DNA of 27,378 bases from Candidatus Baldrarchaeum yapensis (GTDB taxonomy: Archaea > Asgardarchaeota > Baldrarchaeia > Baldrarchaeales > Baldrarchaeaceae), in assembly GCA_016840465.1 (NCBI GenBank), contig JAEOSH010000024.1, positions 1-27,378 on the forward strand, given 5' to 3'. Below, in pieces: positions 13,693 to 13,795 of this stretch. The position numbers were made by a program, and so were the translations under genes. The notes below the pieces were generated by a model that was not told the DNA's origin, searched no databases, and worked only from the letters and a program-made list of their open reading frames with translations. Within the stretch, counting starts at the first letter, position 1. Each line of letters opens with the position of its first letter.

Positions 13693-13795
13693 ATTAGACG
13701 TTTTTGACGGCTCTTTTTGGCGGTGGTTTTTATGTTTTCTCTATGTTCTCCGTCTCCATTTTCCGTGTGCGGTATAACGACCGGGAAGGGGAGGA
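13693..13795 (+). promoter_or_regulatory. Candidate attenuator region: three T5 tracts and an RBS-sequestering hairpin
   Basis: T5 at 13701-05, 13714-18 and 13727-31; CTCCATTTTCCG (13754-65) can pair with CGGGAAGGGGAG (13782-93), which contains the thrC RBS (pairing done by eye). Confidence 0.55.

Follow-up and report, generated by a model that had tools for sequence, protein, structure and literature searches.

A dense oligo-T array between a threonine-rich leader ORF and thrC in Candidatus Baldrarchaeum yapensis as a possible hairpin-free attenuator

Background

The window analysed here is a 27,378-nucleotide stretch of the genome of Candidatus Baldrarchaeum yapensis (assembly GCA_016840465.1, contig JAEOSH010000024.1, positions 1 to 27,378), an uncultured organism from the archaeal phylum closest to eukaryotes. 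It contains a threonine synthase gene, thrC (13796-15016; TIGR00260, 348 bits against a cut-off of 167, with a Pfam PALP match), which is preceded by a predicted promoter, a short threonine-rich open reading frame and a closely packed series of oligo-T tracts. All of these elements, and the RNA folds described below, lie on the + strand, and the window holds no tRNA genes. Promoter, potential sensor ORF, U-tract array and gene together provide a compact test case of about 250 nt.

The arrangement recalls bacterial leader-peptide attenuation, for which a literature search returned no published report in Archaea and which a 2021 review on the coupling of transcription to translation in archaea leaves unmentioned. 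No hairpin is needed for archaeal RNA polymerase to terminate at oligo-T, and terminators commonly follow one another in series (PMC13675443); because the polymerase stops at U tracts in this way, a switch of the bacterial type cannot simply be copied. Hairpin-free termination thus raises the question of how the position of a ribosome could reach the archaeal polymerase, on which structural papers only speculate in terms of exclusion between the ribosome and the termination factor FttA (aCPSF1).

Results

The leader ORF (13597-13692) comprises 31 codons from its ATG at 13597 to a stop at 13690-13692, and includes 11 threonine and five isoleucine codons. Threonine occupies 35% of its codons compared with 4.4% genome-wide, at positions 6, 10, 18-19, 21-23, 25 and 28-30, the last three (13678-13686) being followed by His31 and the stop. 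ACT, the rarest threonine codon of the genome (18%), is used for eight of the 11. A microsatellite origin of the ACT runs was considered and rejected, as the genome has few trinucleotide repeats and those are short. The genome has one short ORF with a threonine run, and it is sited before thrC; two genome scans for short ORFs found no other cognate leader, making this the sole amino-acid-run ORF ahead of its cognate biosynthetic gene. As in attenuators of the thrL type, a short ORF rich in codons for the end product therefore stands ahead of a gene of the pathway. The thrC gene carries a GGAGG Shine-Dalgarno sequence just 5' of its start, which matches the 16S rRNA 3' end (...CACCUCCU).

Two further observations concern threonine synthesis in this host. 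A search for homoserine kinase (thrB, TIGR00191) at E<=1e-30 gave no match in this genome, nor in 93 of 101 sampled Asgard genomes; thrC being present all the same, its substrate may be supplied by a non-classical route. A second thrC paralogue is encoded elsewhere in the genome (contig C54, 41778-42920).

Promoters were scored with a matrix that was EM-learned from 1049 upstream regions of the same genome (consensus cRAAA-nn-TTTATATa). The top site in 13440-13800 is a BRE/TATA element at 13547-13562, which scores 9.5 bits, or about the 95th percentile of best-site-per-upstream-region scores, and predicts a transcription start at about 13585-13590. Further upstream, a T5 run (13445-13449) and a T6 run (13477-13482, the latter at +33) directly follow the stop of a DUF169 gene and are the ordinary oligo-T terminator of that gene. 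The best promoter candidate between leader and thrC overlaps the third tract of the array and reaches 2.8 bits, below the 25th percentile. With 9.5 bits upstream against 2.8 bits at tract 3, thrC most likely depends on read-through of the array, and leader, array and thrC may share a single transcription unit. A promoter followed at a distance of at least 60 nt by at least two T5 runs and then by a gene occurs at six loci genome-wide, and three tracts are found only at thrC.

These scores bear directly on a reading with two separate units, in which the short ORF would have its own promoter, tracts 1 and 2 would be its constitutive terminator and tract 3 would be the TATA box of a weak thrC promoter, with no threonine sensing. 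The sequence of tract 3 offers this reading some encouragement: words of the TTTTTAT type are among the most enriched 8-mers 20-60 nt upstream of starts in the genome, its distance of 67-69 nt to the start codon is within the range observed for TATA boxes, and a best score of 2.8 bits or less is all that roughly one fifth of real upstream regions attain. Tract 3 is nevertheless far below the upstream site in score and is without an A-rich BRE, and the position of a threonine-rich ORF beside thrC would become a coincidence, though it is the sole threonine-run ORF of the genome. We consider two separate units rather unlikely.

The array begins 8 nt after the leader stop (TAA, 13690-13692) and consists of T5 tracts at 13701-13705, 13714-13718 and 13727-13731 and a T4 tract at 13735-13738, just where the sequence-only reading had placed them; a regular-expression check of the sequence returned the same positions. 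Tract 3 has a TTTTTAT core with a weak likeness to a TATA box, and with the T4 tract it makes a 12-nt stretch in which nine of 12 residues are U. An additional TTTT lies 3' of the array at 13759-13762, and the 78 nt 3' of the leader stop are 49% T and 9% A. The KH domains of aCPSF1 bind U tracts, with a minimal site of two U4 tracts in 18 nt (PMC8716108). Packing three T5 tracts and one T4 tract into 38 nt, the array exceeds two U4 or longer tracts in about 30 nt, the density expected from that minimal element.

The genome background for these tracts was taken from 2.27 Mb in 100 contigs (46% GC) with 2207 long ORFs, obtained by crude calling. Per kb and strand, non-coding DNA has 2.97 runs of T5 or longer and coding DNA has 1.42. 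On the sense strand, the 60 nt after stops hold about 0.23 such runs per gene, which is four to five times the within-gene density and higher than the density upstream of starts. At least three of these runs are found in 0.07% of non-coding 50-nt windows, and across 2196 gene ends the 50 nt after the stop never contain more than two T5 runs, a number reached at 39 genes; four T4 or longer runs are present at just five gene ends. The tract density at thrC is therefore exceptional for the genome and beyond chance, with a local probability of about 7e-4, and the array's location directly after a stop is one where this genome puts its terminators.

This background also weighs on the view that the tracts have no role in termination and are a chance product of a T-rich, A-poor spacer, a site where an Sm-like protein binds U-rich RNA, or an unstructured 5' UTR for translation. 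Such a view is compatible with a locus that is a singleton and with the 47 clusters of at least three T5 runs in 40 nt that occur genome-wide, about 20 of them non-coding; several triple-T5 clusters lie 15-56 nt 3' of same-strand stops and several others lie away from gene ends. It leaves unaccounted for both a density unmatched at any gene end and a position directly after a stop that copies the genome's own terminator layout, and we regard it as unlikely.

The regularity of the tracts is a separate matter. The exact 13-nt spacing noted earlier is present, and it is neither beyond chance nor an instance of a genome-wide rule. When three tracts share 31 nt, the middle one will be centred in roughly 1 of 15 cases, and exactly even spacing is seen in two of the 47 triple-T5 clusters; the equal spacing is thus not significant, a point that also favours the absence of a termination role. 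Among distances between non-coding T5 pairs, 12 nt and 13 nt are each represented by 12 pairs against a mean of about 7.5, and similar bumps at 6, 8, 9, 18 and 30 indicate that there is no real peak at 13 nt, so that a 13-nt period was rejected as a genome rule. Tandem Repeats Finder did not call a 13-nt repeat at the array, where by eye the 13-nt units share 9/13 and 6/13 bases.

A consensus terminator scan found no hairpin-plus-T terminator on the + strand and folding there gives weak pairing only, in agreement with the earlier remark that no classic terminator hairpin precedes the tracts. The fold at 37 °C contains a weak long-loop helix between 13681-13687, in the last threonine codons, and 13722-13727, directly before tract 3. 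The 3' arm belongs to a G-rich box (GGCGGUGGU, 13719-13727) that can pair with ACC and ACU threonine codons in several registers, and this complementarity is marginal (p=0.18 at 37 °C, p=0.05 at 70 °C). When nascent RNAs were folded with ribosome masks at different codons, no stable structure appeared around the tracts at 65 or 80 °C. Neither this constraint folding nor a duplex test, which was not significant, gave a mutually exclusive terminator and antiterminator, and no Rfam family, including Thr_leader, matched at the gathering threshold or at E<=10.

The genome encodes reverse gyrase (1448 bits) and its 16S fragment has 65.5% GC, from which we take the organism to be a thermophile. The disappearance of folds near the tracts at 65-80 °C therefore favours a hairpin-free signal. 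An attenuator in the bacterial style would require the G-rich box to pair with threonine codons (ACCACC at 13648 or the ACU runs) as a terminator stem ahead of tract 3, with a stalled ribosome preventing the stem. The 37 °C helix is suitably placed for this and has alternative registers, and by eye the last Trp codons of Odinarchaeial Trp leaders can likewise pair past the stop, ahead of a T6-7 run. The thrC stem would, however, close a loop of 35-70 nt and drops out of the minimum-energy fold once the temperature is set to 65-80 °C, in a host with reverse gyrase, its complementarity is not significant, and a terminator-like site, an Rfam match and a mutually exclusive antiterminator were all looked for and not found. 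With weak folds, marginal complementarity and no Rfam match, a switch between terminator and antiterminator is poorly supported and very improbable, and it was rejected as the main model.

Two other folds lie to either side of the array. A helix of at least 14 bp at 13588-13652 (-25 kcal/mol at 37 °C, -6.7 kcal/mol at 70 °C) encloses the leader start codon and a weak Shine-Dalgarno-like stretch; 1% of shuffles fold as well (p=0.01), and the helix might gate leader translation or pause the polymerase. A candidate hairpin at 13749-13795 (-19.7 kcal/mol at 37 °C, -5.8 kcal/mol at 70 °C) joins a CUCC-rich arm to the thrC Shine-Dalgarno sequence (GGGGAGG). It does not differ significantly from shuffles (p about 0.09) and could add a layer of translational control.

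Returning to the hairpin-free signal, the genome encodes a full-length FttA/aCPSF1 (contig C78, 3887-5815; TIGR03675, 932 bits, model positions 2-630 of 631). Seven nucleotides upstream of this gene lies a 26-codon ORF ending in a run of valine codons (C78, 5886-5966), which is probably a chance occurrence. In Methanococcus maripaludis the median termination efficiency rises from 30% in the absence of a U4 tract to 55.5% with more than two, and aCPSF1 from a Lokiarchaeal, and hence Asgard, source responds to tract number in the same way (PMC8716108). In the structure of FttA with Spt4/5 and the transcription elongation complex (TEC), the terminator corresponds to RNA positions -1 to -36, with a U at the cleavage site at -23 and a U-rich stretch from -30 to -36 (PMC11616081).

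The array can be laid onto this structure by setting the RNA 3' end at 13736. Position -23 then coincides with the U that opens tract 2 (13714), positions -36 to -30 fall on tract 1 (13701-13707), and seven of the nine nucleotides of the hybrid, contributed by tract 3 and the T4 tract, are U. The start-to-start spacing of 13 nt equals the distance from the FttA cleavage site to the KH-bound U-rich stretch, a correspondence recognized post hoc. The fit itself was also found post hoc: a U at -23 with a U-rich -30 to -36 is obtained with the 3' end at 13734 or 13736, and a U-rich hybrid in addition at 13736, as at 78 of 566,004 non-coding positions. The composite pattern of FttA contacts is only 3-fold enriched just after gene ends, and more FttA-fitting sites arise downstream through tracts 2 and 3 (polymerase at 13746-13771), beyond the reach of a stalled ribosome. 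The likeness to an archaeal hairpin-free terminator seen from sequence alone nonetheless receives support from several directions, namely a density unmatched at gene ends, the enrichment of T5 runs after stops, an encoded FttA and the lack of a good promoter before thrC.

The position of the leader ribosome was estimated with a bacterial-type footprint reaching from the first P-site base about 15 nt in the 3' direction. With Thr28 in the A site, the 3' edge of the ribosome would lie at about 13690, leaving a gap of about 10 nt to tract 1; with Thr30 the edge would be at about 13696 and the gap about 4 nt; and with the stop codon in the A site the edge, at about 13702, would overlap tract 1. 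Under this assumed footprint it is plausible that a ribosome on Thr28-30 would sterically hinder an FttA dimer at tract 1. As in systems of the tnaC/Rho type, the putative landing site of the factor adjoins the end of the leader ORF and the stall codons lie beside the stop, insofar as the assumed footprint applies. The proposal that a threonine-starved ribosome blocks FttA survives in part: its geometry fits, with 4-10 nt between tract 1 and the edge of a ribosome on Thr28-30, but stalls at earlier threonine codons would not protect the tracts.

Discussion

We propose, at a probability of roughly 0.45, that the tracts together form a serial oligo-U terminator which needs no hairpin and through which a threonine leader-peptide attenuator takes effect. 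The elements of this proposal differ in strength. The tracts and their rarity, the promoter, the lack of a hairpin and the FttA gene are established from the sequence, whereas termination at this place, a part for FttA in it, an influence of the ribosome and the sign of the regulation are inferred. That the tracts terminate or pause transcription is probable, while modulation of that termination by leader translation in response to threonine has somewhat less than an even chance and the specific step in which a ribosome occludes FttA, the coupling with the best fit, is doubtful.

In the proposed mechanism, transcripts would begin at the 13547-13562 promoter and most would end by default in or just past the array, through weak rU:dA hybrids and the action of FttA/aCPSF1 on exposed U tracts. 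As thrC would be made only from read-through, the array would be the effector half of a leader-peptide attenuator. A ribosome that completes the leader and departs would expose tracts 1 and 2, and with the polymerase at about 13736 tract 1 would occupy -36 to -32 (the FttA KH contacts), tract 2 the cleavage position at -23, and tract 3 with the T4 tract the hybrid. With a ribosome halted on Thr28-30, its edge 4-10 nt short of tract 1, FttA would lose its landing site and read-through would increase.

This scheme has internal tensions. Stalls at the threonine codons from position 6 to position 25 (6, 10, 18-19, 21-23 and 25) would leave all tracts exposed and are predicted to give more termination, not less, and a ribosome at the stop codon would shield tract 1 at least as well as a threonine-stalled one. 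With early stalls exposing the tracts and a terminating ribosome shielding them, the model hinges on how long ribosomes dwell and on whether the polymerase pauses at the tracts. Termination in archaea is moreover leaky, the median efficiency being about 55% even where more than two U4 tracts are present, so that the array could merely damp expression.

In another reading, the array does terminate transcription or make the polymerase pause, without being a homeostatic threonine sensor: it would either damp thrC or act with the opposite sign, a stalled and uncoupled ribosome leading to more FttA termination in the manner of Rho-like polarity. Partial termination is typical of archaeal terminators, and at most of the threonine codons a ribosome would be too distant to shield the tracts. 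Mutual exclusion of FttA and the coupled ribosome on Spt5 has been hypothesized, so that uncoupling would favour termination, and reviews propose the same exclusion (PMC11616081, PMC8116511). On the other side, a 35% threonine ORF with three threonine codons right before its stop, beside thrC, would be left unexplained, and reverse control of a biosynthetic gene would be maladaptive. We judge this reading quite improbable. The most specific form of the attenuator, a first ribosome-versus-FttA competition switch that is hairpin-free, has a U-tract array spaced to the FttA dimer (KH contacts and cleavage site about 13 nt apart) and turns thrC on through a threonine-stalled ribosome, would be a rather improbable outcome.

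Among known systems, the aCPSF1/FttA terminators of M. maripaludis and Thermococcus kodakarensis are closest to the array, with several U4-U5 tracts in about 30-40 nt, no hairpin and a position just after a stop (PMC8716108, PMC11616081). The factor gene is present in this genome as well, and the tract spacing is compatible with the published FttA contacts. Unlike those gene-end terminators, the array is located in a 5' leader, is denser than any gene-end terminator of its genome, and is putative, being read from sequence. The enterobacterial thr attenuator (thrL, Rfam RF00506) shares with the locus a short leader ORF rich in threonine and isoleucine, followed by a terminator, upstream of a threonine-pathway gene; in contrast to thrL, the locus has neither a GC-rich terminator stem, a terminator/antiterminator alternative nor an Rfam match, its host is archaeal with an archaeal RNA polymerase, and the gene controlled would be thrC alone.

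In the E. coli tna operon, a ribosome held at the end of the tnaC leader blocks the adjacent RNA landing site of Rho. This is the logic of the occlusion idea in the sequence-only reading, with two differences: FttA, a nuclease binding U-rich RNA, would take the place of Rho, and the stall would come from uncharged tRNA at threonine codons rather than from inducer-arrested release at the stop.

Comparative searches place leader and array in a single lineage, with no comparative support beyond it. The regions upstream of thrC orthologues from 30 GTDB relatives and at 19 metagenome loci, of thrB in eight Asgard genomes and of thrS in this genome, a gene that is split over two contig ends (C69, 20520-21176; C37, 21-1001) by an assembly break, contain neither a threonine leader nor a T array. 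The nearest non-self homologues of ThrC among about 15 billion proteins are 61-64% identical, and members of its own cluster are 97-100% identical to it; one of the homologues carries the name Odinarchaeum. A pattern of a threonine-codon triplet followed by two T5 runs was not enriched in 400 genomes over a reversed control, and matches in the sister family were antisense to coding sequence.

The sole other copy of the array is on a metagenome contig (L031) from a strain that is 99.0% identical. It differs at 47 positions, 42 of them in 12082-12685 and five in the 4.1 kb around the leader, and this near-identity around the locus makes the contig uninformative on conservation. The variable segment covers a gene resembling a UPF0175 antitoxin and its spacer, a hypervariable toxin-antitoxin patch beside near-identical DNA, and the contig also lacks about 420 nt (11649-12071 of the window) inside a PIN-like gene.

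A related arrangement was seen at another amino acid gene. Among 30 Asgard trpB2 loci checked, Trp-rich short ORFs precede the gene in at least four Asgard lineages, with four to five Trp codons near the C-terminal end (L099, L100, L110, L111, L113, L115, L119 and L123). They share with the thrC locus a short ORF rich in cognate codons upstream of the matching gene; the thrC locus differs in standing alone, in having three T5 runs in its array and in lacking a stable helix. Most of the Trp leaders carry a T5-T7 run 5-43 nt after the stop and then an A run, in genomes that are AT-rich. Since such a T run with an A run behind it might serve as a TATA box, as separate transcription units would have it, these leaders lend weak support to a general rule of a leader stop followed by oligo-U.
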